A DNA stretch of 64,000 nt from an uncultured Mucilaginibacter sp. (GTDB taxonomy: Bacteria > Bacteroidota > Bacteroidia > Sphingobacteriales > Sphingobacteriaceae), in assembly GCA_903864275.1 (NCBI GenBank), contig CAIPFE010000035.1, positions 24,874 to 88,873 on the forward strand. The letters are read 5' to 3'. Under the pieces are notes generated by a model. That model was not told the DNA's origin. It was given only the letters and a program-made list of their open reading frames with translations, and made no database searches. Both the position numbers and the translations under genes were made by a program. Shown here in pieces: positions 2,054 through 50,618 of the stretch (position 1 is the stretch's first letter; each line of letters begins with the position of its first letter).

Positions 2054-3034
2054 ATGCGGGAAGCGTTGTTTGTTAAACAAAACACCCAAAGGTGGAAGGA
2101 TTATGAAAACTTAAAAGATAAAGGCCCTGATGCGCTTGCCGAATCTTTTATAAGTATAACCGACGACCTTGCCTATGCCAAAACATTTTATCCGAAATCA
2201 AATACCACCAAATATTTAAACGGGCTTGCAGCATCGTTTCATCAATCCATCTATAAAAACAAAAAAGAGAAAACCAGCAGGTTTGTTGTTTTTTGGAGAT
2301 ATGAACTGCCGCTGGTTTTTTATAAGCATCGAAAACCGTTATTATATTCGTTTTTATTTTTTACGGTTTTTAGCCTGATGGGGGCGCTTTCTGCGCGTTA
2401 TGACAACACTTTTGTGCGATTGATATTGGGCGATGACTATGTTAACATGACCAATGAGAATATAGTTAAGGGTGATCCGTTTGGTGTATACAAACAGGGG
2501 AGTTCGTTTTTGATGTTCGTTCAAATAGCATTCAACAATATAATGGTTGAGCTGTCAACCTTTGTTATGGGAATAATATTTTCCGTTGGAAGTATTTACC
2601 AACTGATGAGTAACGGGGTTATGATGGGGTCATTTCAATACTATTTTTTTAATAAGGGACTTGGCTGGCAGTCGATTCTGGTAATATGGCTGCACGGAAC
2701 GCTTGAAATCTCTGCAATTATTTTGGCGGGCGGGGCAGGGCTCATCCTCGGTAACAGTATACTTTTCCCTAAAACCTATACGCGTATCGTATCATTAAAA
2801 AATGGAGCAAAGGACGGGCTGAAAATTGCCATCGGATTGATACCTATTTTTATAACAGCAGCTTTTTTTGAAGGCTTTGTAACCCGGCATACCGAAATGC
2901 CTGTTTGGCTGAGTGTTACTATATTAATTGCGTCACTTTCGTTCATTATATGGTATGTAATTTTGTATCCTGCTATCCTAAACCGAAAAATAAATCACAA
3001 TAATAATTTAGTAAAAAATGAAACAGCCTATTGA
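2054..3034 (+). CDS. Stage II sporulation protein M-like / DUF95 membrane protein
   Basis: MREALFVKQN start, DDLAYAKTFYP, FNNIMV, IWLHGTLEISAI and AAFFEGFVT motifs. Confidence 0.88.
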   Translation: MREALFVKQNTQRWKDYENLKDKGPDALAESFISITDDLAYAKTFYPKSNTTKYLNGLAASFHQSIYKNKKEKTSRFVVFWRYELPLVFYKHRKPLLYSFLFFTVFSLMGALSARYDNTFVRLILGDDYVNMTNENIVKGDPFGVYKQGSSFLMFVQIAFNNIMVELSTFVMGIIFSVGSIYQLMSNGVMMGSFQYYFFNKGLGWQSILVIWLHGTLEISAIILAGGAGLILGNSILFPKTYTRIVSLKNGAKDGLKIAIGLIPIFITAAFFEGFVTRHTEMPVWLSVTILIASLSFIIWYVILYPAILNRKINHNNNLVKNETAY

Positions 3035-3896
3035 ACTGAGACGATTACGTGACTTTGGCCAGATTATTAACGATTCCTTTACTTTTTTAAGGGAAAACTT
3101 TAAACCTTTATTTAAAGCGCTGTTTATTATATGCGGTTTTTTTATACTCGTGAGTACCGTCACTACGGTATTTACTTATATGAATATTAGCACCGTGATC
3201 AATATAAATCTAAATTCATATGATGCCCAGTCCAGGCCACTGGAATATTTTGCCACCGCATTAGTGGGCGCTTTTATTTTGCTTTTAACCCAGGCGTTTA
3301 TTCATTTGGTTACCTTGTGTTATATTTCTGTTTATCTCCAAAAAAACAATACAACACCTACCCTGGCAGAGGTATGGGGTTATTTTAGGTTCTACTTTTT
3401 CAGGGTGTTGGGAAGCGGTATATTGATATTTTTTATGTTAGTGATCGCAACAATGCTTTGCGTTATCCCCGGAATTTACATGATTCCGGTTTCTTACCTC
3501 ATTATCCCAATCATAGTAATTGAAAATTCATCATTCAGTTACGCATTTAATAAAAGTTTCAGGTTGATTAAAAACAACTGGTGGCTGGTTTTTGGGGTGA
3601 TCTTTATTATGTCGTTAATCGTGGGGGTTGCGGGTTCTATAGTAAGCATTCCAATAACATTAATCACTGTTGGCAGTAAATTTTTAACCCTCAAAAGCTT
3701 TTCGCTGCCCCTTATCATCATTTTCAGCGTATTAAAGAACATAATTCTGCTTGCTTATGTTTTGCCGGGTATTGCTGTATGCCTATGCTATTTTAACCTG
3801 GCCGAAGAAAAAGACGGCACAGGCCTGCTTGACCGTATAGGAAAATTGGGGACGGCCAATGATGACCAAACAAATTTACCGGCTGAAGAATTTTAA
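3018..3896 (+). CDS. Conserved multi-pass membrane protein (glycerophosphoryl diester phosphodiesterase membrane-domain-like)
   Basis: IELRRLRDFGQIINDSFTFLRENFKPL start, multiple TM helices, SFRLIKNNWW motif; overlaps the upstream stop, suggesting an operon. Confidence 0.75.
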   Translation: MKQPIELRRLRDFGQIINDSFTFLRENFKPLFKALFIICGFFILVSTVTTVFTYMNISTVININLNSYDAQSRPLEYFATALVGAFILLLTQAFIHLVTLCYISVYLQKNNTTPTLAEVWGYFRFYFFRVLGSGILIFFMLVIATMLCVIPGIYMIPVSYLIIPIIVIENSSFSYAFNKSFRLIKNNWWLVFGVIFIMSLIVGVAGSIVSIPITLITVGSKFLTLKSFSLPLIIIFSVLKNIILLAYVLPGIAVCLCYFNLAEEKDGTGLLDRIGKLGTANDDQTNLPAEEF

Positions 3897-3900
3897 GTAT

Positions 3901-4635
3901 ATGCATAAGTTTATACCCCCATTTGTTCTAACATTATTAATTGCATTATTTTTAGTAAGCACTAAAGCTGCGCCGGTTAAAAAAAAGTTGCCTGCGAAGG
4001 TCAGCATTGATACCACAAAAATTGCGGTAAAAAAATTTGATGCAAATGCTATAAAAAAGTATAAAAGGGATAAAGAATTTAACTATACGGGGGAAGCGGT
4101 TGGCCAGCCTTCGTTATGGGAACGTTTCTGGAACTGGCTTTGGGATAAGATCTTAAGTCTGTTTGGCAGGATTCCGTTCATCGGGCCTATTTTTAAATAC
4201 CTTTTGCTGGGCCTGGCGATTGCCCTTTTAACCTATGTCATATTTAGATCGTTGGGGATCGATGCTATGCAATTGCTCCGGGGCGATGCGAAAAAAATTG
4301 ACCTGGCCTATACCGAGTCGCTCGAAAACATCCATGAAATGAACTTTGACGCTGAAATTGAAAAAGCTATTTCACAGCACAATTTCCGGCTCGCTGTCCG
4401 TTTGCTGTATTTAAAATGTTTAAAACAACTAAGTGACAAGAATTTAATTCAATGGCAAATTGATAAAACAAACGCCGCCTATGTTTACGAACTTGCCGAC
4501 CCTGTACAAAAACAAACTTTTGGATTATTAACCAGGCAGTTTGAATATGTGTGGTATGGGAATTTTTTTATTGATAAGGATATCTTCAGCAACATTAACT
4601 TATTGTTTCAAAACTTTAAAAATCACCTGCCATGA
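3901..4635 (+). CDS. DUF4129 domain-containing protein
   Basis: Signal peptide, TM helix, then FRLAVRLLYLKCL...KTNAAYVYEL...LTRQFEYVWYG; second ATG (3901) preferred over 3859. Confidence 0.85.
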   Translation: MHKFIPPFVLTLLIALFLVSTKAAPVKKKLPAKVSIDTTKIAVKKFDANAIKKYKRDKEFNYTGEAVGQPSLWERFWNWLWDKILSLFGRIPFIGPIFKYLLLGLAIALLTYVIFRSLGIDAMQLLRGDAKKIDLAYTESLENIHEMNFDAEIEKAISQHNFRLAVRLLYLKCLKQLSDKNLIQWQIDKTNAAYVYELADPVQKQTFGLLTRQFEYVWYGNFFIDKDIFSNINLLFQNFKNHLP

Positions 4636-5810
4636 GGAGTTTGAAGCTGTATTTGATAGTGGGGGGCGTACTGCTAGCGATTTATATAATTGCACAGCTT
4701 AACCGTCCTAAAGCTGTTGATTGGTCGGAGTCATTCAGCGATAAAGAAAAAACGCCTTTCGGGACATATATAGTTTATAACCGGTTGAAGGATGTTTTTC
4801 CAAAATCCCGAATAATACCTTACCGCCAGCCGGTTTACTCGGTAATTGCCGAAGACTCGATAAAAAATTCATCTTATATTATTATTTGTCCTGGGTTTGA
4901 GCTTACAAAAGCCGACTATGACCAGCTGGTAAAATATATAAGGAAAGGAAATGACGTTTTCATCGCTTCATCCTATTTTGGTAAAACATTCGATAAAAAA
5001 TTGAGTATCAGGACAGAAACCTTCTTAAAATTTGGCAGGGATACGTCTTCCGTAAAATTTTTGAACCCGGCATTAGATCCTCAAAAGCTTTACACCCTTG
5101 ATAAGGGTACAGGGAGCAATTACTTCAGTAAATTTGATACGTTGCGGGCAGCCGTAATAGGCGAAAATGTAAATCATAAGGCCAATTTTATAAAATATAG
5201 TTTCGGCAAAGGGTCGTTGTACCTTGTTACCAATCCAAAATTATTTAGCAATTACAGCTTATTAAATCCCAGTGGGGCCGAATATGCCGCAACGGCGCTA
5301 TCTTACCTGAAAAGCAGCGACAAATTGATATGGGACGAATATTATACGCAGGGAGATACCGGGAGTGAATCACCTATGCGCGTGTTTTTAAGTAACGATG
5401 CCTTACAATGGGCTTATTATATTGCTATTTTAAGCTTATTGATATTTGTATTTTTTGAAGTAAAACGGACACAGCGTGTCATCCCGGTAATTGAACCATT
5501 AAACAACACAACGCTGGAATTTGTAAATGTAGTAGGCCAGGTTTATTACGAAAAGCGCAACAATGCTAATATCGCCCATAAGAAGATCCTCTACCTTTTG
5601 GAACACCTGCGCGAAGAATACCAATTAAAAACCAATAAACTGGATAGTGAATTTACTGAAAAGTTAACGGCAAAATTGGGGATTGACCCTGCTTTCTCGC
5701 ATAGATTGGTTAGTTACATACTGTATATCAGCGTCCAGGACCATGTTTCCGATCGTGAATTAATTGAATTAAATAAATTGATAGAAAAACTTTATATCCA
5801 ATCCGCATAA
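4632..5810 (+). CDS. DUF4350 domain-containing protein
   Basis: DWSESFSDKEKTPFGTYI, LSNYSLL-like motif, WDEYY, KRTQRVIPVIEPLNNTTLEFVNVVGQVYY; ATGA overlap with the upstream gene. Confidence 0.85.
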   Translation: MRSLKLYLIVGGVLLAIYIIAQLNRPKAVDWSESFSDKEKTPFGTYIVYNRLKDVFPKSRIIPYRQPVYSVIAEDSIKNSSYIIICPGFELTKADYDQLVKYIRKGNDVFIASSYFGKTFDKKLSIRTETFLKFGRDTSSVKFLNPALDPQKLYTLDKGTGSNYFSKFDTLRAAVIGENVNHKANFIKYSFGKGSLYLVTNPKLFSNYSLLNPSGAEYAATALSYLKSSDKLIWDEYYTQGDTGSESPMRVFLSNDALQWAYYIAILSLLIFVFFEVKRTQRVIPVIEPLNNTTLEFVNVVGQVYYEKRNNANIAHKKILYLLEHLREEYQLKTNKLDSEFTEKLTAKLGIDPAFSHRLVSYILYISVQDHVSDRELIELNKLIEKLYIQSA

Positions 5811-5812
5811 TT

Positions 5813-6790
5813 ATGGAAGATGAAATATTTGAACAAAGAACCGACCTGAGCAAGCTTAGTGCTGCCGTTGAGCAGATCAAGGCAACGCTGGCGAAAATAA
5901 TTGTCGGTCAGCACGATAGTATTGACTTGCTTATAGCAGGCATACTTGCCGACGGGCATATATTGATTGAAGGTGTGCCGGGTGTCGCCAAAACTTTAAC
6001 TGCCAAGCTGATCGCGAAATCAATTGATGCAAAATACTCACGCATACAATTTACGCCGGACCTTATGCCTTCGGATATTTTAGGCACATCGGTATTTAAT
6101 CCAAAAACTACCAATTTTGAGTTTAAACACGGCCCTATTTTCGGCAATATTATCCTGATTGACGAGATCAACCGTGCCCCGGCGAAAACGCAGTCGGCTT
6201 TGTTCGAGGTGATGGAAGAACGCCAGTTAACTATCGACGGCCAAACCTATAAAATGGAGGAGCCCTTCACCGTACTGGCAACACAGAACCCGGTGGAGCA
6301 TGAGGGCACCTATCGCCTGCCCGAAGCGCAGCTGGACCGTTTTATATTTAAAATAGAAATAAAATACCCTTCGCTGGATGAAGAAATAGCTATTCTTACC
6401 CAACAGCATAACCAAAAGACGACCGATCAGCTAAAGCATATCCAGCCGGTATTAACGGCGCAGGATGTGGTTTCGTTACGGAGGGTGGTATTGGGCCTGC
6501 ACGTTGAAGAAAAGATATTGGTTTATGTAGCCAAGATAGTTCATGAAAGCCGCAACAATAAGTCGTTGTACCTGGGCGGGTCGCCGCGTGCCTCACTGGC
6601 CATTATAAACGCTGCAAAAGCGCTGGCGGCCATTAAAGGACGAGATTTTGTTACGCCGGATGATGTTACCTATGTGGCGGCACCCGTTTTAAGGCACCGC
6701 ATTATGCTAACCCCCGATAAAGAAATGGAAGGTGTAACACCCGATGATGTAGTGGCACAAATTATTCAGAAAATTGAGGTGCCGAGGTGA
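5813..6790 (+). CDS. MoxR-family AAA+ ATPase
   Basis: Walker [22 protein letters not shown], Walker [45 protein letters not shown]. Confidence 0.96.
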
Positions 6791-6865
6791 AGTGGTGAAT
6801 GGTGAGTAGTAGTAGTGGCAGTAGCAGTGGCAAATAACCAACACAGAAAACGGTAGTGCTCAATA

Positions 6866-8212
6866 ATGAAAAAGCTGTTTAATTTATTTTATACCAACCT
6901 GTTTTTAACCAGCCGCCTGTTTATGGCGCTTGGTGGCTGCGTTGTGCTGTTTTTGCTGGCTTTCTTTTTTCCGTGGCTGGGCGTTATTCCCGAATTGGTT
7001 TTTTACACCCTAGTAATTCTTACTTTCATTGACATACTTATGCTGTACCGCACCGCCAAAGGCATATTTGCGAAGCGGCATGCACCTGAACGCCTCAGCA
7101 ATAGTGATGATAATGAATTGGGGATATATATTGAAAACTGGTACCCTTTCAACATCAGCGCAGGTATTATTGATGAAATCCCCTTTCAATTTCAGAAAAG
7201 GGATATCTGGTTTAAAACCGAATTAAAACCCCGCCAGCGCAAACTTATAAACTATGCCCTACGCCCCACAAAACGGGGGGAATATGAATTTGGACAGGTG
7301 AGGGTCTTTGTCAGGTCGCCGGTGGGGCTTATTACCCGGAGGTATAATTTTAAACAGGCGGAAACATTGGCAGTGTACCCATCTTTTTTGCAAATGCGCA
7401 AATATGAACTGATGGCCATCTCGAATAATCTATCGGAGATCGGGATTAAAAAAATCAGGCGCCTGGGCCACAGCCTTGAATTTGAACAGGTAAAAAATTA
7501 TGTGCAGGGCGATGATTACCGTACCATAAACTGGAAAGCAACAGCAAGGCAAGGCACATTAATGACCAACAACTACACCGACGAAAAATCGCAGCATGTA
7601 TATTGCGTGATCGAAAAATCGAGGGCGATGAAAATGCCTTTTGATGGTTTAAGCCTGCTTGACTATGCTATAAATGCCAGCCTGGTTTTATCAAACGTGG
7701 CATTATTAAAAGAAGACAAGGCTGGTTTGATCACTGTAGCCGAAAAAATTGGCACTGTCGTCCCCGCCGACCGTCGCCCAACCCAGATCAATAAGATACT
7801 GGAAGTATTATACAAAGAGAAAACCCGCTACCTGGAAACAAATATGGAAGTGCTGTACAGCACCATACGCAGCGTTATCAAACAGCGCAGCCTGGTGGTA
7901 TTTTTTACTAATTACGAAAGTATGTCGGCTTTACAAAGGCAGCTGCCATTTTTAAAACGGATAGCGAAATTTCACCTGCTGCTGGTAGTGTTTTTTGAAA
8001 ATACCGAGCTTAAAAAGCTAAGTGAAGAAGCAGCCGTCGACGTAGAAGGGATTTACATAAAAACTATTGCCGAAAAATTTGCCTACGACAAAAAACTGAT
8101 CGTAAAAGAACTGGCTAAATATAATATCCAATCAATTTTAAGCACACCCAAAAACCTCACCGTAAATACCATTAACCGTTACCTGGAAATTAAAGCAAAG
8201 CAGAAGATATGA
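6866..8212 (+). CDS. DUF58 (VWA-like) MoxR-associated protein
   Basis: EFEQVKNYVQGDDYRTINWKATAR motif; directly follows MoxR. Confidence 0.93.
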   Translation: MKKLFNLFYTNLFLTSRLFMALGGCVVLFLLAFFFPWLGVIPELVFYTLVILTFIDILMLYRTAKGIFAKRHAPERLSNSDDNELGIYIENWYPFNISAGIIDEIPFQFQKRDIWFKTELKPRQRKLINYALRPTKRGEYEFGQVRVFVRSPVGLITRRYNFKQAETLAVYPSFLQMRKYELMAISNNLSEIGIKKIRRLGHSLEFEQVKNYVQGDDYRTINWKATARQGTLMTNNYTDEKSQHVYCVIEKSRAMKMPFDGLSLLDYAINASLVLSNVALLKEDKAGLITVAEKIGTVVPADRRPTQINKILEVLYKEKTRYLETNMEVLYSTIRSVIKQRSLVVFFTNYESMSALQRQLPFLKRIAKFHLLLVVFFENTELKKLSEEAAVDVEGIYIKTIAEKFAYDKKLIVKELAKYNIQSILSTPKNLTVNTINRYLEIKAKQKI

Positions 8213-9500: not shown

Positions 9501-11138
9501 TTACATCATTCCGCCCATGCCGCCGCCACCATGCATTGGAGCACCGCCACCTTTGTCTTCTTCAGGATCATCAGCCAATACACATTCTGTTGTTAACAAC
9601 ATTGCTGCGATCGAGGCTGCATTTTCCAGCGCTACACGACCTACTTTAGTTGGATCGATAACACCAGCTTTGATCAGGTTTTCATATTTATCGGTACGGG
9701 CATTATAACCAAAATCGGCTTTGCCTTCCCTTACTTTTTGCACTACGATCGAACCTTCGATACCTGCGTTTTCGCATATCTGGCGTAAAGGCTCTTCAAT
9801 AGCGCGACGGATGATCTGGATACCAGTGTTCTCGTCGTCATTATCACCCTTAAGGTTAACCAAAGCATCAACTGCACGGATGAAAGCAACACCACCGCCT
9901 GCAACAATACCTTCTTCGACAGCCGCACGGGTTGCATGTAAAGCATCGTCAACACGGTCTTTCTTTTCTTTCATTTCCACTTCAGAAGCTGCGCCGATAT
10001 ATAATACAGCAACACCGCCTGATAATTTGGCTAAACGTTCCTGTAATTTTTCTTTATCGTAATCAGAAGTTGTAGTTTCTATCTGGGCACGGATCTCGCT
10101 TACCCTTGCTTTAATGTTATCAGGGTTACCATCGCCATTAATAATGGTTGTGTTATCCTTGTCAATAGAAATTTTCTCAGCTTGTCCTAACATCGAAAGA
10201 TCAGCACTTTCCAGTTTGTAACCTCTTTCTTCCGAAATTACAGTACCGCCAGTTAACACAGCTATATCTTCAAGCATAGCTTTTCTGCGGTCGCCAAAGC
10301 CTGGGGCTTTAACGGCTGCGACTTTCAGTGAGCCACGGATCTTGTTAACTACCAAAGTAGCCAGCGCTTCGCCGTCGAGGTCTTCAGCTATAATTAATAG
10401 TGGTTTGCCGGTTTGAACTTGCTTTTCCAGGATAGGAAGCAATTCTTTCATCGAAGATATCTTTTTATCATAGATCAGGATGTATGGGCTTTCCAGCTCC
10501 ACTTCCATTTTGTCAGCATTGGTAACGAAGTACGGAGAAAGGTAACCACGGTCAAACTGCATACCTTCAACGGTTTTAACTTCAGTTTCAGTACCTTTTG
10601 CTTCTTCTACAGTAATTACACCGCTGGTTCCAACTTTTTTCATCGCATCGGCAATCATTTCGCCAATTTGTTCATCGTTGTTAGCCGAGATAGAAGCTAC
10701 TTGCTTGATTTTACTAAAATCATCGCCAACATCCTGTTTTTGCGATTTTAAGTTCTCAACAACAACCCTTACCGCTTTGTCGATACCGCGTTTCAAATCC
10801 ATTGGATTTGCGCCGGCAGCTACGTTTTTAATACCGGCTGTAACAATAGCCTGGGCTAAAAGCGTAGCAGTTGTGGTACCATCACCTGCAATATCTGCAG
10901 TTTTTGAGGCCACTTCTTTTATCATTTGAGCGCCCATATTTTCGATAGGGTCCTTTAACTCAATTTCCTTTGCAACAGTTACACCGTCTTTTGTAATAAC
11001 CGGTGAACCGAACTTCTTATCAATAATTACGTGACGGCCCTTTGGACCTAAAGTTACTTTAACTGCATTTGCTAAAATATCAACACCGCGTTTTAAGGCG
11101 TCACGTGCTTCTACATTGTATTTAACCTGTTTTGACAT
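9501..11138 (-). CDS. groL: Chaperonin GroEL
   Basis: [31 protein letters not shown] motifs; C-terminal GGMGGMM. Confidence 0.99.
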
Positions 11139-11242: not shown

Positions 11243-11533
11243 TTACAGAACCGCGAAGATATCCGATTCACGCATAATTAAAAGTTCTTTGCCTTCATAG
11301 GTGATTTCGGTACCGGCGTATTTACCGTATAAAACCTGGTCGCCTACATTAACACCGATTGGGATAAGGCTGCCTGAGTCGGCATATTTACCAGGCCCAA
11401 CAGCTACAATAGTTCCTTTTTGTGGTTTCTCCTGCGCAGTTTCAGGTATGTAAATACCAGACGCGGTCATAGTTTCGGCGGGAGCAGCTTCTACTACTAC
11501 CCTGTCTCCGATAGGTTTGATTTTTAATGACAT
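11243..11533 (-). CDS. groS: Co-chaperonin GroES
   Basis: [37 protein letters not shown] motifs; directly upstream of groL. Confidence 0.99.
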
Positions 11534-11580
11534 AGTTATACTATTTATTTAATTATAATTTAAGTTCTTGTTTGCTTTGC

Positions 11581-11596
11581 TCATCAATTATGCCAA
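11581..11596 (-). promoter_or_regulatory. Putative sigma54-type -24/-12 promoter of groESL
   Basis: Minus strand reads TTGGCATAATTGATGA (TGGCA box; GG-N10-GA instead of GC). No TAnnTTTG box was found between the secG terminator and groES. Confidence 0.45.
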
Positions 11597-11720
11597 GCAA
11601 ATGCAATTTCACTAATTGGCATACAATAGCTGATGTATTGTCACTTTTAGGTCAGTGAGGTTTTCATTCTTAACGATAGCTTAATATCGTAATGCCATCA
11701 TGTCAGTATGTAATTCTACT

Positions 11721-11757
11721 AAAAAAGGCCTTGCACCGCTTTACGGATGCAAGGCCT
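11721..11757 (-). terminator. Intrinsic terminator after secG
   Basis: Perfect 10-bp stem aggccttgca/tgcaaggcct followed by T6 on the minus strand. Confidence 0.85.
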
Positions 11758-11776
11758 CTATATTTTTTTAAGCTTT

Positions 11777-12166
11777 TTACTTTTTTTGTCCAGGGTTAGC
11801 CGGCCGTTGAGCTGCTGGCTGGGAGGTTGCGGGCTGCGATCCCGGCAAAGGTAATGTTGGCGCTGCAACAGGAGCTGCAGTCGATTTTGAAGCCTTTTCT
11901 GTTTGCTCCTTATACCGGTTGCTGCCTTGCTGTGTTGTGGCCCCGCCTTTTACGGCAACATTAATAGCCATTGATAAAACCATCAAAGTTATAGCAAGCA
12001 CCCAGGTGCCTTTTTCTAAAAAATCGCCTGTTTTTTGTACGCCCATTAATTGTGATGAGCTTGAGAAATTCGATGACAAACCACCACCCTTGGGGTTTTG
12101 TATTAAAACTATAAGTACTAAAAGTACACAAACGATGATCGCGATGATCAATAATAACTGGTACAT
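11777..12166 (-). CDS. secG: Preprotein translocase subunit SecG
   Basis: LIVLIQNPKGGGLSSNF...GVQKTGDFLEKGTW motif. Confidence 0.95.
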   Translation of the reverse strand: MYQLLLIIAIIVCVLLVLIVLIQNPKGGGLSSNFSSSSQLMGVQKTGDFLEKGTWVLAITLMVLSMAINVAVKGGATTQQGSNRYKEQTEKASKSTAAPVAAPTLPLPGSQPATSQPAAQRPANPGQKK

Positions 12167-12175
12167 TATTTTATA

Positions 12176-13951
12176 TTAATTGGTTTTCTTTTCTAACTGT
12201 TCTATTTTGTCGGCAAAGTAACGGCTTTTTTCCGGGAATTTCAACATCAATTTTTTATACGATGCTATAGCCTTATGGTAAAGCATCTGGTCCGAATAAA
12301 TAACCGCCAGTGTTTCGGTTACCAGCTCATCACGGTCTTCCGAGCTTTTCTTTGCTTTATTTTCATTATCAATTTTATCACTGCTTTGGGGCTTAATTTG
12401 CGGTTCTTCTTTTATAAAGCGCTCAATAATAACATGCTCTTTGCGCTTTATATTATACGGAGCTGTAAGCGGGGGGGCATTTTTGTCTAATTCATCAACC
12501 GAAGTTATATGGAAAATATTCTCAAAATACTGCTGCTGTAATTCATCAGTGGCCCTTTTTGGCTGATTACTTAAATTAGCCCCTTCTGGTTTTACGTATG
12601 GCTGATAGGCCCCGGCATGCTCTTTACGCGTTTTATCAAGCCACCACATAAAGGTATAGGGCATCTTCTCGTCATTGTACTTTGAAACATCCTGGTGATC
12701 AGTATTATCTGCGGCGGCGGTGTCAGCCGTGCTTCCTGGTGAAGCCTTCGCCACATTCTCTGCCTGATCAGCTTGTTTATGGTCGCCAAATGCCTTGTCA
12801 AACATAAAAAAATCTGTTGAGGCAATACTTTCAGGTACCAATTTTTCTACGTCGTCAGCCGCCGGCTTTCTTTCTTCGTGTTCTGCCGCTGCCTGGTTAG
12901 TTTCAGGCCCGGTGCTTATATCTTCAATACCAACAATTTCATCGAAAGTTTCTTCTTCAATAGCTTTTTCGGGCTCTTGTTCATTGGCTTCAACAGCCTC
13001 GGGGTCTCCAATTGTCGCTTCGGTTTCTGCAGCGGACTCAATGTAGGCCGGTTCATCCTGTTCCTCTTTTTCAGTTACGGCTTGATGAATTAATTCAGGC
13101 TCCTGGACGGATGAAGTTTCCGCTGAGATAGCCTCATGAACTTCAGCATCTTTATTTTCAACGGCTTCTTCCGGTTCAATATCCTCCGCGACAGCGTGAT
13201 GAATTAATTCAGGTTCCTCGTGAGATGATATAGTTTCGGGGGATACCGCTTCGTGAAATTCGGCAGCCGTATCTTCAGCCGCTTCCACTATATCCTCACG
13301 TTCGGTAGCTGCATCATGAATTAATTCAGGCTCCTGGGGTGCAGTTACAGCATCAGCCGACAGTTCTTCATGAGGTTCGTTGCCTATATTTTCTCCCGGT
13401 TCTTCAATGGGGGTGTTTTCTGCAATTTCGGGAACGGCTTCTGATATGTGATACTCATCGACCAGCGAGCTGCCTGCAGGCAAATCTTCTTCATCAGCTA
13501 TTGCAATTTGGTGATCCTCAAGTCCTGTCGCTGCTTCCGGCTCGCTTTCAACCACCCGGTGATCGTCTGCATGGGAATCAATAACGGCATCTTGAACATT
13601 TTCGCCCGGCTGCACAAACAAATTTTCCTCCGTTTGCAGGGGTTTGTCTTGCTGATAATGCCCATTGGACCTGATTCCGGTTTGAATAATAATTTTGTCA
13701 TCAGGCACACCGGTAAACGTTGACGGGGCATTGATCAGTTTATATAACGATTTGGCATTGAAATAAACTGAGGCCTGCCTTAAATTCTTTTCATCACTGG
13801 CATGCGCGAGCAGGGCCTGCAATATACCGCTTTGCGGAAAATCATTGACCAGCCGCTGCAAATTATAAGCATACAAATGGGCGTCGTTGGCCGGATTGGC
13901 TAACAATGCCCATAAAAACTCGTTCTTACTATTATTTAAATCTTGATCCAC
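12176..13951 (-). CDS. Conserved hypothetical protein with a long acidic low-complexity linker and a TPR-like C-terminus
   Basis: 591 aa, GTG start. N-terminal helix (LQRLVNDFPQSGILQALLA); acidic middle with 3 internal repeats; C-terminal LVTETLAVIYSDQMLYHKAIASYKKLMLKFPEKSRYFA. Confidence 0.8.
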   Translation of the reverse strand: MDQDLNNSKNEFLWALLANPANDAHLYAYNLQRLVNDFPQSGILQALLAHASDEKNLRQASVYFNAKSLYKLINAPSTFTGVPDDKIIIQTGIRSNGHYQQDKPLQTEENLFVQPGENVQDAVIDSHADDHRVVESEPEAATGLEDHQIAIADEEDLPAGSSLVDEYHISEAVPEIAENTPIEEPGENIGNEPHEELSADAVTAPQEPELIHDAATEREDIVEAAEDTAAEFHEAVSPETISSHEEPELIHHAVAEDIEPEEAVENKDAEVHEAISAETSSVQEPELIHQAVTEKEEQDEPAYIESAAETEATIGDPEAVEANEQEPEKAIEEETFDEIVGIEDISTGPETNQAAAEHEERKPAADDVEKLVPESIASTDFFMFDKAFGDHKQADQAENVAKASPGSTADTAAADNTDHQDVSKYNDEKMPYTFMWWLDKTRKEHAGAYQPYVKPEGANLSNQPKRATDELQQQYFENIFHITSVDELDKNAPPLTAPYNIKRKEHVIIERFIKEEPQIKPQSSDKIDNENKAKKSSEDRDELVTETLAVIYSDQMLYHKAIASYKKLMLKFPEKSRYFADKIEQLEKKTN

Positions 13952-13972
13952 GAGGTTGAAACTACAAATTGC

Positions 13973-14497
13973 TTACCAATTTGCAAAGGCTCTGTTAAAA
14001 ATATCTTCTGTTAACTGTTTATTAATAGCTGCAATCAATGTTTGCTCCTGTGAATTAATATCACCGGAAAATGGCAAAGCCTTTGAAAACGATGATTCAA
14101 AATTATCTTTTTTATCCAGGTTATTTACATATTTCACATTAACCGTAATTGTTAACTGGCTCGCGCCCGCTATAGGCGCTACATTGTTAGCGGTGGCATT
14201 GATAGACACTGGTGAAATATTATAATCGGTAATAGTGCCCGACATTACGACATCCGCTTCACCAGTTACGACGCCGAGGCGTGAAGTATTCCTGATGCGG
14301 TCTTTCAACGCCTCAGTAAATAGGGTGCTTAAATTATTAACTACAAGTGCAGCATTATTTTCAAAAAACTCCACCCTTATGGTTTTCACGGCGGGAGGGA
14401 TTGAAGACCCATTGAGGCTTAACTTATAGGTACATGACGGAAAAACCAATAGCAAACATATAAATGCTATTATTACCCTCGTTATCCTTTTCATCAA
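13973..14497 (-). CDS. lptE: LPS assembly lipoprotein LptE family
   Basis: Lipobox (FPSC), YKLSLNGSSI, VEFFENNA, FTEALKDRI, QLTEDIFNRAFANW. Confidence 0.85.
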   Translation of the reverse strand: MMKRITRVIIAFICLLLVFPSCTYKLSLNGSSIPPAVKTIRVEFFENNAALVVNNLSTLFTEALKDRIRNTSRLGVVTGEADVVMSGTITDYNISPVSINATANNVAPIAGASQLTITVNVKYVNNLDKKDNFESSFSKALPFSGDINSQEQTLIAAINKQLTEDIFNRAFANW

Positions 14498-15736
14498 TTA
14501 TAAATTTAATTCCTTTATTTTCCGGTACAAAGTCCGTTCAGATATCCCCAATTCACTTGCTGCCAGTTTCCGCTTCCCTTTGTGTTTTTTTAAGGCTTTC
14601 CGTATCAGGTCCGACTCTTTATCAATAAGCGAAAGGGATTCCTCTACCTCCTCGGCATCCTGCGTTATGTTATACGCATTAGGATTATTATTATTGTTGA
14701 TACCCGGCTTTTGTAATGTAAATTGTGTCTCAGGCGTTCCGGGCATATCAATATCGCGATATAAATGGTTCAATGTTTGCGAATGATTAGCATGGTTGAT
14801 GGAAACGCCGCCATGTTCGATTATATCAGCAACCAGTTTTTTAAGTTCAACCATATCGCGCTTCATATCAAACAATACCTTATACAAAATATCCCGTTCC
14901 GAAAAATCCTCCTTTTGCTGGTTATCCAAACGCATCGGCAAGTTGCGGCCGCTTGTTTCCATAGGAATGTAAGTAAGCAGGGTTTGCGCGGTAATAACCC
15001 GGTCGCGTTCAAGCACCGCCAACTGTTCGGCCATATTTTTTAACTGCCTTATATTGCCCGGCCATGAATAATTGATTAATACTTGCTGGGCCTCGTCATC
15101 CAGCTGTATTGGGGGGGTACGGTATTTATCGGTAAAATCGGAAGTAAATTTCCTGAAAAGTAGATACACATCCTCTTTCCTGTCGCGCAGGGGTGGGATT
15201 TTTAAAGGCACCGTATTTAAACGGTAATAAAGATCTTCCCTGAATTTCCCGCTTTTAACGGCATCGTAGACATCAACATTGGTGGCGGCTATAACCCGCA
15301 CATTTGTTTTTTCGACCTTTGAAGAACCTACTTTTATGTATTGGCCCGATTCAAGCACCCTTAACAAACGAGCCTGTGTACCTAATGGCATTTCGGCTAT
15401 TTCATCCAAAAATATAGTCCCCCCATTTACGGTTTCAAAATATCCTTTACGCTCGCCAACTGCGCCGGTGTAGGCCCCTTTTTCGTGGCCGAATAATTCA
15501 GAATCAATGGTCCCCTCCGGTATGGCACCGCAGTTTACAGCGATGAAAGGCCCATGCTTACGCGGGCTCATCTGGTGTATGATATGCGAAAAAACTTCTT
15601 TCCCGCTGCCGCTTTCCCCGGTAATCAAAACAGAAATATCCGTCGGCGCTACCTGGTTAGCAATATTTATAGCCCGGTTAAGCAAAGGCGAATTGCCGAT
15701 GATACCGAAGCGTTGTTTTATTTCTTGTATTTCCAT
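14498..15736 (-). CDS. Sigma54-interacting transcriptional activator (AAA+ plus Fis HTH, no N-terminal sensory domain)
   Basis: ITGESGSGKE, ELFGHEKGAYTGA, FLDEIAE, FREDLYYRL, WPGNIRQL, C-terminal AASELGISERTLYRKI. Confidence 0.95.
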   Translation of the reverse strand: MEIQEIKQRFGIIGNSPLLNRAINIANQVAPTDISVLITGESGSGKEVFSHIIHQMSPRKHGPFIAVNCGAIPEGTIDSELFGHEKGAYTGAVGERKGYFETVNGGTIFLDEIAEMPLGTQARLLRVLESGQYIKVGSSKVEKTNVRVIAATNVDVYDAVKSGKFREDLYYRLNTVPLKIPPLRDRKEDVYLLFRKFTSDFTDKYRTPPIQLDDEAQQVLINYSWPGNIRQLKNMAEQLAVLERDRVITAQTLLTYIPMETSGRNLPMRLDNQQKEDFSERDILYKVLFDMKRDMVELKKLVADIIEHGGVSINHANHSQTLNHLYRDIDMPGTPETQFTLQKPGINNNNNPNAYNITQDAEEVEESLSLIDKESDLIRKALKKHKGKRKLAASELGISERTLYRKIKELNL

Positions 15737-15737
15737 A

Positions 15738-15885
15738 CCCCCCGACCTCCCTAAAGGGGGAGTTTTTTGTTTAAATGTTTGCCCCAGCCCCTAAAGGGGA
15801 GTTAACTTAATAATTAATTATTTTGCCCCAAACCCATACGCTGATTTACCAACCACGCGTAACTCCCCTTTAGGGGGTTTGGGGG
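15738..15885. repeat. Cluster of three REP-like CCCC-N-CCCCTAAAGGGG hairpins
   Basis: Copies at 15738-15762, 15782-15801 and 15863-15885 (inverted; contains the miaB stop). Related copies at 50567-50590, 58291-58322 and 16593-16611. Confidence 0.8.
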
Positions 15886-17405
15886 ATGCCGATCAACGTC
15901 GCCGTCGTACTTCTTTCAATGATGACATTAACATACTGCCCTGGTTGATAACCGTCTCCTACAGGGAAAACAACCATCGCATTCTGGTCGCTTCTTCCGC
16001 AATAATCATTATTTGATTTTTTTGAAAAACCTTCTATTAATACTTTTTGCGTGGTGCCCACTTGTGCCTGCAGCCGCAAAAAGGAATGTTCCTGTTGCTT
16101 TGCTACTATTTCCTTTAACCGCTGACGCTTTACAGCATCGGGTATATCATCTGGGTAACGCTTGGCTGCTAAAGTTCCCGGCCTTTCGGAGTACATGAAC
16201 ATATAGGCGAAGTCATAATGCACATAGTCCATCATGCTCAAGGTATCCTGGTGCTCTTCTTCTGTTTCGCTGCAAAACCCGGTGATCACATCTGTTGATA
16301 TGGCACACCCGGGGATTATCCGGCGGATAGCATTAATGCGGTCAATATACCAATCCCGGTCATAAGTGCGGTTCATAAGTTCCAATACCCGGCTGTTGCC
16401 CGATTGTACCGGCAGGTGGATATAATTGCAAATATTGTCGTACTTATTTATCGTGTGTAAAACCTCGTCGGTAATATCCTTTGGATGCGAAGTTGAAAAA
16501 CGCACCCGCAGGGCAGGGCTGATTTGGGCAACTAATTCGAGGAGGTTGGAGAAGTTGACCGTTCTTACCTCCTTAAAGTTTTCCTTTTCAGACCCCTCCC
16601 CTTTGGAGGGGGTAGAGTGAGGCGTCTCCTGGCGTTCCTCGTTACTAATTTCTTCCTGCCTTTCGCCTTTCGCCTTTTGCCTTTCACCTTCGGACCATTT
16701 ATACGAATCCACATTTTGCCCAAGCAAGGTAACTTCGCGGTAACCGCAGTTAAACAGGTCAGTACATTCATTAACGATGGATTGTGGGTCACGACTGCGT
16801 TCGCGGCCACGGGTAAACGGAACTACGCAGAAGGAACACATATTATCGCAGCCTCGCATAATGGAAACAAAGGCATTGATGCCGTTGCTGTTTAAACGTA
16901 CCGGGCTAATATCTGCATAAGTTTCCTCGCGCGATAAAAGTACATTTACCGCTTTTTGGCCGCCGTCAACCTGTTCTATCAGGTTTGGAAGGTCGCGGTA
17001 AGCGTCAGGCCCCACAACAACATCAACCAGCTTTTCTTCTTCTAAAAATTTTGACTTCAGGCGTTCTGCCATGCAACCCAGTACACCTACCACTAAACCC
17101 GGGTTTTTAACCTTGGCAATGGTAAATTCTCTCAGGCGGTTACGTACACGCTGCTCTGCATTTTCCCGGATAGAGCAGGTGTTTATAAAAATAACGTCGG
17201 CAACGGTATAATCAGATGTGGTTTCAAATCCCTGTTCCAGTAAAATAGAAGCTACGATCTCGCTGTCCGAGAAATTCATCGCGCAGCCATAGCTTTCGAT
17301 GTACAATTTACGCCCATTGTTTTTAGCGGTAATTGGTTCTAATACCAAAGCTTCTCCCTGCCTGCTTTCATCATGTAACTTATCCGGAATAAGCAAATCC
17401 ATCAT
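15870..17405 (-). CDS. miaB: tRNA-i6A37 methylthiotransferase MiaB, with an in-frame repeat-derived insertion
   Basis: [27 protein letters not shown], radical [22 protein letters not shown] domain. Start at 17405, downstream of a TATTTTTG -7 box at 17425-17432. Confidence 0.97.
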
Positions 17406-17452
17406 CCTTATAAAAATTAGTCTGCAAAAATACATAAAATTTATATACAGTG

Positions 17453-17465
17453 TGACAGATTGTCA
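17453..17465. promoter_or_regulatory. Perfect palindrome TGACA-GAT-TGTCA over the -33 region of the miaB operon promoter
   Basis: Seen in sequence. Similar motifs lie at 11693-11705 and 11631-11643 upstream of groES. Confidence 0.55.
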
Positions 17466-20426: not shown

Positions 20427-23400
20427 TTATTGCAGCAGCAATTTTAAATTGATCCCAAAATTAGTAAAGGCTGTGTTAAACGTTTGGGACGTATAAGGCC
20501 TGTTTAAGTTCGAATCGTAAAATAAATTCAGGTTAAAACGAGGGCTGATCAAATAATCAATTGAGGGCCGGATCGTAATATTTTGTGCACCTGATGCTAC
20601 CTGTGCCGCCTCACCTGGCTGGAAAATAAATGTTTCGTTGTCCTGCAACGAAAAATCTATCTTAAAATTGACATCGTTTTTATTTGACCTGCCGCTAAAC
20701 CAGCCAAATGGGAACCTGAAATTTTTATCGTGGTAACCCCACCCTAAAACTATTGCATTTTGATTTTGCTGTGCAAGCTGGCCGTTTATCGCGCTAAGGC
20801 TTAACGACCGGCTTTGGCGGTATTCAAAGGTTGCTGTCATGCTATTCTTAAAACGCGCATCTATGCCTATCAACGGCACAAACTGCTCAAGTATAGTCAC
20901 CTGCGCAAACTGGTAAAGCGGCAAAAAGTCGTTATTGGCGTCTCTTGAAATTACCGCGCCGTTAGCTGTCTGGTATTGCAGCAAAGTACTGTAGCCACTT
21001 ACATTGTACGATGCCCGGTAACCATTTTTTATATCAAACGAGTCAAAAACATCGCTAAACCACGGGAGATGGCTTAAGCCGCTATAATCGATCAGCCAGT
21101 TTGGAATAGGGAAACTGGGGAACTGGCTCAGTCCCGAAGTATATGCGTTTTTCCCGGTATAAGCTGCCAGGAAAGCAGGCACCAAAACGTTCTGCGAGTT
21201 AGCGCTGTAGCCATCAGCAAAACCACCAACAGGAACACCAATTGAGTTTGGATTAAGCTTACCGAGCCTTTGCGAAATGATAGGAAGGTCATTCAAAAAA
21301 TGCTGAAAGATGGGTGAATTATTATCAATCCCGCTGATCTTTGAAAATGCCGTTCCAAGCGACATGTACGAAATACTGTAATCTCCGGTAGTAACGGGGT
21401 TATAACTCTGTATATCGTTTCCGCCGTCAATTGATTTAAAATTGGTTTGATAAGTATGGTCCTGCGTTTTAAATGCAGTCAGATCGATCCTGAAGTCTTT
21501 AAACGGCTGAATAGTGCTTCTTAAATGCAGGTCCTGGTTAAAGGTGGTTACGTAAAGCTGATTTTGGAGCGTGTCGGTACTTATCCATCCATGCCCAATA
21601 GCTGTTTGGCGGAGGTCGGCCTGGCTCCCTAACAAAAACCCTATACCCGGTGCACCGTAATTAAGGTCCTGGCCGAAAAAATCCGACGCCGGCAGGTAAC
21701 CCGGAATAAATGTACCGTCCGTCTGCGTATAAGTGCCGCTGATGTTTTTAACGCTGGTTAGCAGCCCTACTAATAATCTACTCAATGCATCGTCATTACC
21801 CGGATCCGTTGCCTTTTTTACAAAAGCAAGCTTATGGTATAAAGTCTCAAAATTAAGGGTTGGGTTAATTTGAATTGTACGCGCATTTTGAATACTGTTA
21901 CCGACATCAAATTGCGGGTCATCGATTGCGAACAGGGGTTGTGCCTGCCAGTTAAAGTGTGTACTATAGCTGGTGACAAGGGTTGCCCAGTCAAGCCCGG
22001 GTATTTTATTGAGCGGAACGTTATAGTGTAAATTTAAAGTATGGTTATAATTTGTGGTACGGCCCAGGGTTAGTATATTTCTCCATAGCGTATCTAACTT
22101 TAAGCCGTCGAGCCTGCCATAAGGTTCATCAACCGTTGAAAGATTGGTGGCGTCGATATCCATAGTAAATGATTTTGTGATATTCCAACCTATACCATAT
22201 ACCCGTGTAATGTTGAATGTTTTATTAAATGTGGGGGTTATAGGTATAATGTTAGTGGGATCATTATTGCGTAAAGTATTCTCCGAATAAAAACGGTCAA
22301 AACTAATACTGTAATTTAACCGGGTGGGGTAAAGGTTATAATTTATGTCGCGCAGCAATGCAAGCATATTGTTTTTGATGATCTTGCTCAAAGGATTGTG
22401 ATACTTTGGCTGGGTAGTAAAATTATAGGCCAATTCAGCATGGTATGTTTTCTCCTGGTCGTCAAGGGTAGTAAAATCGTGGTGCTCAAGCGCGGTATAG
22501 GCCAGTGTTGCATTCCAGTTTTCAATATCCCAGATATGGCTTACCGCCTTAGGATCTGTTTTTGCCTTATGTACATTGGTAAGATTGATACTTTTGTGCG
22601 AGGTATAACTTTCAGCTGCGTTCTTTATAGAATCCCGCACTTTAGCGCTTGGCGCTTCATTAAGTACCTGCTTTAACAGGATATCCCCCGAAGCCGGGTC
22701 ATATTGGGGCATACTTGTTTGCGTTGACACATCTACATACAAGGGGATATGTATGCCGCTTTTATCCGGGAAGAATTTCCCGAGCTCCATGTTCCCCGAA
22801 ATATCGTAGGTTGAATTGTCATCCATGCTTCGGTTACCCACATTCGAATCAAGTGTGCCAAAACCAACAGTAGTTTTGCTTCCGGATATACTAATATTAG
22901 CGAAATCGGCAAGTTTGGCGCTAAATCTTCCAGTAGCAGCCCAGCCGCCCTGTTCATTAAAATTAGTCAGGCGTAATTCATCAAACCATAAGGTACCCGT
23001 TTTTGGGAGCCCGTCGTCCGTAGCTGCGGTGGCTGCGGTCCTTAATGGGTTACGCACGCCAAGCATAACCGTGGTTATCGCACCAAGATCGGGCTGCCCC
23101 AGGATCGTAATTTTATTACTCCCGATTTTTACCGTATACGGCACCGTAATTGGCCAGGGCAGGCCGTTAAGTTTAGCGTTGTCGCGGGCAAGCTTTGCAT
23201 CTGTAAATTGCGAAAGCGTTATATCCATTTCATTTGCTGCCGGCCAAACAGCAGTTGGGCCCCCGCTTCCTGGCTGGGTAACCTGGAGAGGTATCTCATA
23301 CTCATAATAATTCTGTACATAATCCGTCCCTAAACGTATAAAACCACTCAGGTCGTAATTCTTTAACCCGGTGCCTTCAGCGTGGATAAACATTTGCAGC

Positions 23401-26400
23401 TGCTTATATTGCCGCAGGTCGTTATTAAAAAGTTTGTAAGCGGCCCGCGAATACCCATCGCTCAGGTTGGTTACAAGTAACGACAACGACTGCTCATTTA
23501 GCCGGGTATTAACCTGTAAATTGCTGTAATCGGGCTGCTGCTGGATTCCTGGCGGTATTGAGTAGGGTACAGGTATGCGGTTGCTGTCCTCAAAAACATT
23601 TACTGTTTCCACATCAATGGTTGAATTGTCAAGCGGCGGGTTAATAAGGGATGGGTCTGCAATTACGTTGGCAGGATCGTTCTCAGTATTAAACGCAAGC
23701 CACGAACCCCGTACCAATTGTAATGTGGCAAAACGCAGTATTGCAGTATCGGCAAAATTGGTCATGAACATCCGCATGTATCGGATCGACTTAAAATCCT
23801 GGATACCGCCTATAACAGACTCATAAGATTTTATAGGCACCCTGAACTGGTACCAGCTAACCGCCTGTGTTGACCCGTTGGCAAGTTTAACCTGCGAGGT
23901 AACTTTATCAGTAACGAAATTTTTGCCCACTACCAGGTCCTGCGGGCGAACCGACACTTTATATTGAAAATATTCATCATCCTGGTCCATGTTGCCATCA
24001 TGGTTAACATCTTCCCCATCAGGCAATGCCGTAGATGCCGACGTTTGGAGGCCAAGCAGTGCCTGCGATTGTTGTGAAGTAGGCGAGTTGCCATCGGTGC
24101 CGTTATACATGCTGTAACGCTGTAAAATACCCGCGCCTGCCCTGTCAAGTGCCGGGCCCTGGTAATACTGGTAATCATCCGATGAAGGGTCGGCGGTTAA
24201 ACTATTTGCCGCGGCCGCGCTTAGTTGCCCTTTGGCCTGCTGTATTACGTTCGAAAATTTCGTCCTTTCATCCGCGTCATTTAAACCATCTAAACCAATG
24301 TCCTGCAGTTGGCGCGAAGTCGGGTTACTATCAAATGAATTAACTACCGGCTGAATTTGAGACACCTTGCCCCATGCAGTTTCGCTAACCTTCCCGCTGG
24401 TACCGTCAACAGGCAAAGCATTTTCCAGGCTTTTCTGCCCGTCTTTTAATATGTCCTCTGATACGTTGCCCAGGTTAAAAAAGAGGTCACCGCCTACTGA
24501 ATTAGGTTTGTATATAAAAGGGTCCATTATCCAAAATTCAATATATACCACATTCAGGTCCTGGAAATCAGTTGAGTTGATACCCCTGAACATGCCACCC
24601 CATCGGGTTTGCGGGTTTTGCAACGTCCCGTTGCTGTTGAGGCCGGTGGTTGTATAGTTATACGGGCCGCGAATCATCGGATAAAAAGCAAGGTCCAAGG
24701 TAGGTATAGGCAGAGGCTGCCCTGTAGGCGATTGTTGATTCGGGAACACCTCATTTTGAAGCACCTGCCTGACGTAGTGATTTGATAACTCATTTCGGCT
24801 AACGGGGATAGTGGTACCGCTATAAAAAATAGGGTCGATAGTATAAAATGAAAGGCGGGCACGGTTGTATCCATAGCTCAGGTCATTAAAGGCCTGCGAT
24901 TCAGGAAATAGTTGTGGTGTGCCCGAAATTTGCCAGCTTGACGGACTTCTAACGTCAATGACTGAAGTGCTGTTTTCAAAATCGTCAAGGTATGCTGTTC
25001 CGTTTTTTGATCCGGCAAAATTAAGGGCGCTTGGGCTGCCGGGTATCAGATCAGCAAATTCGCCGGTAAAGTTTATGGACGAGGGCACTTTGGTATGGAT
25101 AAGCGGTATCTTGTCCACCAGCCTTGTAAGCAGCCTCGACGTTGAATTATAATTAATATCAAAACCAACCATTGTATTTGAAACCGACTCTTCTCCAATA
25201 ATTTCATTTTGGGTTATAGGCTGTTCGGTTAAGTGCATTAAGGTAGCTCCCAATGCCAGGTTATCGTTAACTTTATAGTCAAGCCTTGCCCCGTACAGCG
25301 ATTTTTGCTGTACCCCAAATAGCTCGTTATTTTCCACTTTTACAGTAATTGGCTGCCCTGACGAAAGCAAGGCCTGGTTAAGGATACGGATTGTGCCTGC
25401 CGTATAATCAATTGTGTAATCGGCGCCTTCTTTCAATGTTAACGTTCCCGCGTTGACGATCACAGATCCCTGTGGTATATTAACAGCATTTAACTGGTAC
25501 ACCGAGCCGCCCGTGGCAGTATAAGTGCCCGATATGGTATACCTGTTCAAGTTCGGAAAAAGCCGCTGCGCCGTTGTTTGTGTCGAATCGTATAAGGGCT
25601 GATAAACGTAGCGCTTGATCAGGTCCTGTTCACCCGGCAGGAACCGCTTGGCCAGGTCGGCGCCAAAGGGTTCCAATACAGGGAATACAATAACCCCGTT
25701 TTGCGAATTGATGGTTATTCCTTCAAGGTAATCAAAATAACCGTCAGGCTGCTTTTGCTGCTGTTGATCGAGGTTATCCAGGTCGGTAAGTTGTATCCAA
25801 AGTTTGCCTTTTGTATTCTGCCCTTCCTCCATTATGGGTTTTTCGAAACCTGTTTTATCATCCAGCCGGGATATGGTCATTTTAAAATCTTTAGGACTAA
25901 CCTGGTATGCATTCAATGAATAAACATTTTTCATCATCAGGTCCCAGGTGGGCAAGGTGGTTTTCAGCAGCTCATTTTTCAACAGTTTTACATATAGCAC
26001 TTTAGGGGTGGTCTGGTTAACCGGCAAATCGGTGGAGAATTCACCCACCTGGTATTGCTGGCCATTATAGGTGTATTGATAAGCCACCGCGAGCACTTCA
26101 TCATTGTTGAGCGGGTAGTTCAATGAAATGTAACCCAGCTGTGGGTTAAGTGTATAATCTTTAGACGTTAACAACCGGGCATAGGTTAATTTGGCATAAT
26201 TATCGGCCCCGCCGCTGCCGGCGAAATAAGTTGCAATGGTATTGTGAGGGTCGTTCGTCAACCGTGCATTTGCGGGGATATTGCGCAGTAAAGAATTTGA
26301 TTGCTGCGGAAAACCGGGCCCCTGGAAACCTGCCGGCAAACCCGAAAAAGCAGGCCCTCCTTTTACAAGGGTGGTGTTAAATGGCTTGTTTTCGCCAAGG

Positions 26401-50560: not shown

Positions 50561-50618
50561 GCGCGGCCCCCTAACCCCCTGAAGGGGGAATTAATTACTA
50601 AGGGCTTAAAACCTAACA

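Follow-up and report, generated by a model that had tools for sequence, protein, structure and literature searches.

The closest described relative of the system treated here is that of Flavobacterium psychrophilum, in which sigma-54 (SM4) promoters precede groESL, dnaK, grpE-dnaJ, htpG, lon and clpB (Guerin et al. 2021, PMC9723704), and in which the start of groS was mapped by 5'-end RNA sequencing to a promoter, aaaTGTCAgttttaaatccTTGGCATAATTTCTGAAAAG, that has GG at -26/-25 and G at -14 and was placed in class Sig54 with p = 1 (PMC9723704 Table S2). The distance from its -12 element to the start is within the 11-15 nt characteristic of sigma-54 promoters. Sigma-54 chaperone promoters have also been predicted across Bacteroidota and Planctomycetota (PMC12316311, which for B. 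thetaiotaomicron refers to Sabree et al. 2009), and both studies left the activator open and named no enhancer sequence. Here we propose a candidate for each in a 64-kb stretch of DNA from an uncultured Mucilaginibacter sp. (contig CAIPFE010000035.1; below, the window, whose positions serve as coordinates), in which the chaperone genes groES and groEL lie on the minus strand in one cluster with a gene for a sensor-less bacterial enhancer-binding protein (bEBP). Reports of 2021 and 2025 already cover sigma-54 control of chaperone genes in Bacteroidota; an enhancer palindrome and its assignment to the adjacent bEBP are new and testable, and no description of the palindrome, or of this bEBP as the activator, was found in full-text literature searches.

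Compared with the F. psychrophilum system, in which groESL, dnaK, grpE-dnaJ, htpG and lon share one motif, and with the predictions of PMC12316311, the window has an orthologous promoter and differs in that both an activator and an enhancer are proposed, here in a Sphingobacteriia genome. The PspF/psp operon of Escherichia coli is also similar, in that its activator consists of an AAA+ domain and a helix-turn-helix (HTH) without a sensor and is controlled in trans, the unit that encodes it has an enhancer-type site across its promoter, and the output is a stress response. Unlike PspF, however, the bEBP of the window is no PspF orthologue (TIGR02974, 259.9 bits against a cut-off of 443.55), has no PspA-like inhibitor among its cluster neighbours miaB, lptE, orf591 and secG according to Pfam and NCBIfam, carries an extra conserved helix and a variable linker, and would target cytoplasmic chaperones. 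The bEBP NtrC, working at glnA/glnL from palindromic sites upstream, activates a sigma-54 promoter and represses sigma-70-type promoters with which its sites overlap. Palindromic sites upstream of a sigma-54 promoter, together with a site overlapping another promoter, recur in the window, whereas NtrC has a receiver domain and a kinase, and its sites, which have another sequence, are more distant upstream. The RpoH (sigma-32) and HrcA-CIRCE (controlling inverted repeat of chaperone expression) systems share with the window the output genes groESL and dnaK and, probably, feedback by free chaperones, but the window system would use an enhancer-dependent sigma factor in place of a sigma-70-family heat-shock sigma factor or a repressor; CIRCE has no match in the 64 kb with up to three mismatches allowed. 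An earlier note on this DNA had proposed sigma-54 rather than RpoH or HrcA for Bacteroidota chaperones, which is correct, from the conservation at groES and dnaK and the F. psychrophilum transcription start site (TSS); the absence of RpoH and HrcA themselves lies beyond what a 64-kb window can show.

We consider it probable, from the sequence comparisons described below, that groESL has a sigma-54 promoter with palindromes bound by the adjacent bEBP, and that this protein feeds back on its own unit. The groES-groEL genes would have a sigma-54 (-24/-12) promoter, with transcription starting near 11568, and this promoter, like all of its type, would need an ATP-driven enhancer-binding protein. 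The enhancer would comprise 13-bp palindromes at about -131 and about -69 plus a half-site at about -51, and the binder would most likely be the sensor-less bEBP encoded 3 kb upstream. The features on which this depends are as follows, with site centres counted from the predicted TSS.

11596-11581, minus strand: sigma-54-type promoter TTGGCATAATTGATGA, GG-N10-GA, with GG at 11594-11593 and the -12 G at 11582
11616-11622, minus strand: proximal half-site ATGCCAA, at about -51
11631-11643: middle site, TGACA-ATA-CATCA on the minus strand (TGATGTATTGTCA), one strong and one weak half-site, centre at about -69
11693-11705: distal palindrome TGCCA-TCA-TGTCA (TGCCATCATGTCA), centre at about -131
11718-11759, minus strand: secG intrinsic terminator, stem 11759-11724, U-run to 11718
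11243-11533, minus strand: groES (Pfam Cpn10, 120 bits)
9501-11138, minus strand: groEL (Pfam Cpn60_TCP1, 273 bits)
14498-15736, minus strand: bEBP, sensor-less sigma-54 activator (Pfam Sigma54_activat, 228 bits, and HTH_8)
15870-17405, minus strand: miaB, open reading frame (ORF) open to 17435 (NCBIfam TIGR01574, 430 bits)
17432-17425, minus strand: miaB -7 box TATTTTTG, an exact TAnnTTTG of the Bacteroidota sigma-A type
17453-17465: palindrome TGACA-ATC-TGTCA (TGACAGATTGTCA), over the -33 position of the miaB promoter

The groES promoter, which the earlier note had placed correctly, reads TGGCAT-N7-GA at 11595-11581. A weight matrix built from other genomes only, without the window sequence, ranks this site first over both strands at 17.7 bits; every other window match above 10 bits lies inside an ORF and was rejected as a promoter, as was a TGGCAT at 17738, inside an AsmA-like ORF. 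In 1 Mb of related loci 48 of 55 matrix matches of at least 14 bits are groES sites, the others lying within ORFs. TGGCAY with G at +13 occurs 42-138 nt 5' of the ATG in all 51 groES upstream regions of a first set taken across Bacteroidota (consensus tTGGCAYAannttyTGa), and the -12 C is replaced by A in 28 of these 51 promoters, while TGGCAY and the -12 G are invariant. A second, independent set of 77 regions, anchored on GroEL and taking in lineages where groES has left the cluster, has 59 regions scoring at least 12 bits compared to 8 of 1600 shuffles (0.5%). We therefore read GG-N10-GA as the form that the sigma-54 promoter, canonically TGGCAC-N5-TTGC, takes in this lineage, one that Guerin et al. 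accepted as Sig54; GA at -12 is normal in this phylum and no weakness, because the dnaK consensus too reads TTGA. No covariation was seen between the -12 dinucleotide and the GAYTGA/GAFTGA loop of the bEBP. By analogy with the mapped groS start of F. psychrophilum, the groES TSS is predicted near 11568, which differs by one base from the earlier estimate (11569). Upstream, the promoter region is bounded by the secG terminator that had been proposed to insulate it, a hairpin of -25.3 kcal/mol followed by U6 (z = -6.25), which a simple terminator scan overlooked; a simple sigma-70 scan was uninformative. Between this terminator and groES there is no exact TAnnTTTG, again as claimed, and the one match with a single mismatch, TGCATTTG at 11605-11598, is not conserved.

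As TGnCA is self-complementary save for its centre, TGnCA-N3-TGTCA forms a 13-bp palindrome, which appears in either orientation and fits a dimeric HTH protein. TGNCA-N3-TGNCA matches the window twice compared to 1.02 expected, and the two matches fall in the two promoter regions, groES and miaB, of one conserved cluster. The loci nearest to the window come from Mucilaginibacter metagenome-assembled genomes (MAGs) and M. lappiensis, and the window sequence is also present in lake-water metagenomes. In the Mucilaginibacter relatives the promoter, the distal palindrome (as ACTGACAyGATGrCA), the middle site (within the block gTGACAaTnnAACAG) and the proximal half-site are conserved while the flanks have diverged; the proximal half-site is the same in the window, L081 and L083 and reads TGTCA in L082. 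Among the pentamers that the earlier note had listed as phased, those at 11617 and 11639 are conserved in these relatives and that at 11650 is not. The -24 element and the proximal half-site also form a perfect 8-bp inverted repeat, TATGCCAA-N18-TTGGCATA, at 11589-11622.

On a wider scale, no 5-mer is more enriched than TGTCA/TGACA, either upstream of groES (9.6-fold, in 51/51 sequences) or upstream of miaB (5.5-fold, in 57/59), and the complete palindrome TGnCA-N3-TGnCA is found in 33/51 and 40/80 groES regions and in 53/59 miaB promoters. Outside the promoter zones of these two genes the motif is rare: 102 palindromes were found in 1.0 Mb of related loci, 53 before miaB, 36 before groES, 2 before bEBP and 11 elsewhere, so that 91 of the 102 lie within groES or miaB/bEBP promoter zones, and one of the 11 is a miaB promoter missed through a truncated match. 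The palindrome is commoner at groES when the gene remains in the cluster (29/39) than when it does not (10/38). Conservation of the motifs had been set beforehand as a test, and it held upstream of groES, dnaK and miaB orthologues. In several Flavobacteriia loci (L040, L044, L050, L052, L059, L076 and others) the site, 45-60 nt ahead of the -24 element of groES, is part of the hairpin that terminates the preceding gene (aaaATGCCAGCtTGTCAaaGCTGGCATttttttt), so that a single sequence would act both as an RNA terminator and as a DNA site. A Proteiniphilum MAG (L031, 6940-7050) has, upstream of recF, a tandem TGCCAAT array of 8-bp units, ATGTGCCAATGTGCCAATATGCCAATGTGCCAAT, together with inverted copies; it resembles the half-site but stands at an unrelated gene and seems unrelated.

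Promoters of dnaK were sought as TGGCA-N8-G lying 35-65 nt before the conserved IGIDLGTTN codons, which returned 120 loci. At least 9 bits were scored by 93 of these, nearly all from Bacteroidota with a few from Planctomycetota, and their consensus is TGGCAYAAtcATTGAc. The palindrome TGnCA-N3-TGnCA is present at 41 of the 93 promoters, and a slightly stricter dyad at 40, where the background is 0.010 per 150 nt; the dnaK loci, 674 kb in all, have 46 dyads, of which 40 lie within 150 nt of the promoter, and loci with a poor promoter score (chance matches, other phyla) have almost none. With the same type of enhancer before dnaK, the bEBP would drive a cytoplasmic chaperone regulon. Two Planctomycetota loci (L189, 524-2150; L232, 1-1036) likewise have a sigma-54-type promoter before dnaK and a bEBP gene directly upstream. 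In these loci, in contrast, the bEBP has a receiver domain (NtrC type) and is preceded by a histidine-kinase fragment, and the dnaK promoter is canonical, TGGCACGCAAGTTGC, with TTGC at -12 and TGCCA repeats. This resembles sigma-54 control of chaperones run by a two-component system.

At miaB the palindrome ends 20 nt before the perfect -7 box TATTTTTG, so that it occupies the -33 place, as had been proposed. The gap between palindrome and exact TAnnTTTG is 15-21 nt (mode 18) in 37 of 43 miaB promoters, a distance at which the right half, TTGTCA, supplies the TTG of the -33 element. When 120 miaB promoters were retrieved by requiring the right half-site only, the left half-site was present in 113, compared to about 1% expected, and bEBP followed downstream on the same strand in all 63 of those loci with at least 3.5 kb of flank. 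The likely start of miaB is the ATG at 17405, the first in-frame ATG (17435) lying inside the gene's own promoter and overlapping the -7 box. A bEBP on the -33 region of this sigma-A promoter would feed back on its own synthesis, probably negatively, as do PspF and NtrC; synteny and motif sharing make such autoregulation plausible. The same two lines of evidence, with the palindrome commoner at groES in the intact cluster, point to the bEBP as the putative binder of the palindrome.

The bEBP has 412 residues, comprising an AAA+ domain (12-260; PF00158, 228 bits), a helix ERDILYKVLFDMKRDMVELKKL (279-302) that is conserved across the phylum, a low-complexity variable linker of roughly 60 residues and an HTH_8 domain (374-410) that is highly conserved in the conservation profile. 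Since the AAA+ domain begins at residue 12, there is no N-terminal regulatory domain, and the protein is sensor-less with a GAYTGA loop as the earlier note had described it; with no sensor of its own, it has to be controlled in trans. GAYTGA is found in the window and in L001, the loop reading GAFTGA in 37, GSFTGA in 41 and GAYTGA in 2 of 80 aligned bEBPs. The protein scores under the cut-off of every named NCBIfam equivalog, and its solved relatives align through the AAA+ domain only.

The gene order miaB, bEBP, lptE, orf591, secG, groES, groEL is kept in most of 80 synteny loci from Flavobacteriia, Sphingobacteriia, Cytophagia, Bacteroidia and some Chitinophagia, with bEBP and lptE neighbours in nearly all of them. 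By Pfam and NCBIfam annotation the bEBP is the sole DNA-binding protein of the cluster, whose other members in the window are listed here.

11777-12166, minus strand: secG (Pfam SecG)
12176-13951, minus strand: orf591, a conserved cluster member of 591 residues without assigned function
13973-14497, minus strand: lptE (Pfam LptE)

Motifs recurring at groESL, at dnaK and at the promoter of its own operon make the bEBP likely to be a heat-shock regulator. It is a larger step, which we take tentatively and with some doubt, to propose that it is the master heat-shock activator of Bacteroidota, a counterpart of sigma-32 or HrcA, with the palindrome before groESL, dnaK and its own operon and with titration by free chaperones acting through the helix at 279-302 or the linker. 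By analogy with sigma-32, HrcA and HspR, titration by free chaperones would be the most economical guess at the signal in trans. The response might also concern the envelope, as the earlier note had suggested.

Several observations weigh against the adjacent bEBP as the activator of groESL through these palindromes. Many groES and dnaK promoters have a half-site 11-30 nt 5' of TGGCA, which is unusually near the -24 element for an enhancer; the -24 TGGCA is itself a TGnCA half-site and could inflate some of the counts; and a complete palindrome is found in only about half of the groES and dnaK promoters, with single TGnCA sites in the others. RNA evidence for the groES TSS was sought in metagenome and metatranscriptome runs, the only ones with this sequence, whose contigs come from relatives and end at the start codon. 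A structured spacer of 133 nt separates miaB from bEBP in the window, so that co-transcription within the proposed miaB operon is uncertain, and autoregulation would depend on read-through. Where miaB is not upstream of bEBP (mostly in Bacteroidales) the palindrome precedes bEBP in 2 of 14 loci, and in F. psychrophilum bEBP has its own start site, of another promoter type, SM5 (PMC9723704). That species also has three proteins with a sigma-54 interaction domain, none assigned by the authors, and its sigma-54 promoters fall into two or more co-expression groups (PMC9723704). Taken with the usual lack of the palindrome before bEBP in loci without miaB there, and with a site across the -33 box, a position typical of repressors, these candidates would suit an alternative in which the sigma-54 promoter is real and the palindrome is bound by another bEBP or a separate regulator (e.g. 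a heat-shock repressor), the adjacent bEBP controlling other genes, perhaps those of the envelope such as lptE. We regard this as unlikely, since the bEBP is kept near groES across four classes, it lies downstream of all 63 testable miaB promoters that bear the palindrome, no second DNA-binding gene is conserved nearby, and a sigma-54 promoter needs a bEBP site, for which no alternative conserved motif was seen. Two further lines of enquiry were set aside: a sole-bEBP test in Blattabacterium using PMC12316311 S9, where the enhancer-binding-protein counts are too loose, being non-zero even for Actinomycetes and Wolbachia; and the joint rise of miaB and clpB expression on agar in F. psychrophilum, which many genes show.

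It is very improbable, in our judgement, that the TGnCA palindromes bind no regulator and are by-products, of terminator stems before groES and of an extended -33 element before miaB. The Flavobacteriia site does lie within a terminator hairpin (ATGCCAGC..GCTGGCAT), and at miaB the right half does supply the TTG of the -33 box; however, in the window no hairpin forms at the sites, which follow the terminator, at miaB the left half is kept although no -33 box includes it, and the same 13-mer recurs before dnaK and is nearly absent elsewhere in 1 Mb. We attach almost no credence to the view that there is no sigma-54 promoter at all, groESL transcripts arising by read-through from secG or at a sigma-A promoter that escaped recognition, and GG-N10-GA being present by chance. 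Such a view could appeal to GA instead of GC in the -12 element and to the frequency of the loose pattern TGGCAY-N7-GM, with 9 occurrences in the window compared to 8.7 expected; but the significance of the motifs comes from their position and conservation, window counts alone not being above chance. The element is kept throughout the phylum and its spacing is fixed; these promoters, including those of dnaK, usually have GA or TTGA at -12; a TSS has been mapped for the orthologue; and the region follows a strong terminator and has no TAnnTTTG box within it.

The spacer between miaB and bEBP is filled by a repeated sequence.

15748-15876: three CCCCTTTAGGGG palindromes, one with a mismatch

A fourth, weaker match is at 50576. 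The spacer RNA folds to -58 kcal/mol (z = -2.25) without a U-run. The spacer could represent a small repeat element or a signal for processing or attenuation. At the other end of bEBP the stop codon abuts the TTG start of lptE with zero gap (14497-14498), which suggests translational coupling of a transcription activator with the lipopolysaccharide-assembly lipoprotein LptE. The product of orf591 has no Pfam or NCBIfam match, and its C-terminal 80 or so residues are conserved at the same cluster position across the phylum, in most loci. Other than groESL no chaperone genes were found in the window, and rpoN is not among its annotated genes, the Pfam scan having covered 30 larger ORFs. A search of 9-18 kb of the window against Rfam gave no family, with a single chance small RNA match below the gathering threshold (24.2 compared to 56 bits, E = 0.39). 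Elsewhere, genes for SpoIIM-like, DUF4129, DUF4350, MoxR-type AAA (AAA_3) and DUF58 proteins form a MoxR-associated cluster on the plus strand (2054-8212), and one ORF of 2348 residues occupies 20427-27473 on the minus strand.

Bacteroidota rank among the main inhabitants of gut, soil and water. With one defined 13-bp site and one candidate activator, each conserved across the phylum, the question of how they sense protein-folding stress becomes directly testable, and the regulon could be predicted for any genome of the phylum. The association of the activator with lptE and secG is a hint that envelope biogenesis may be coupled to the supply of cytoplasmic chaperones.

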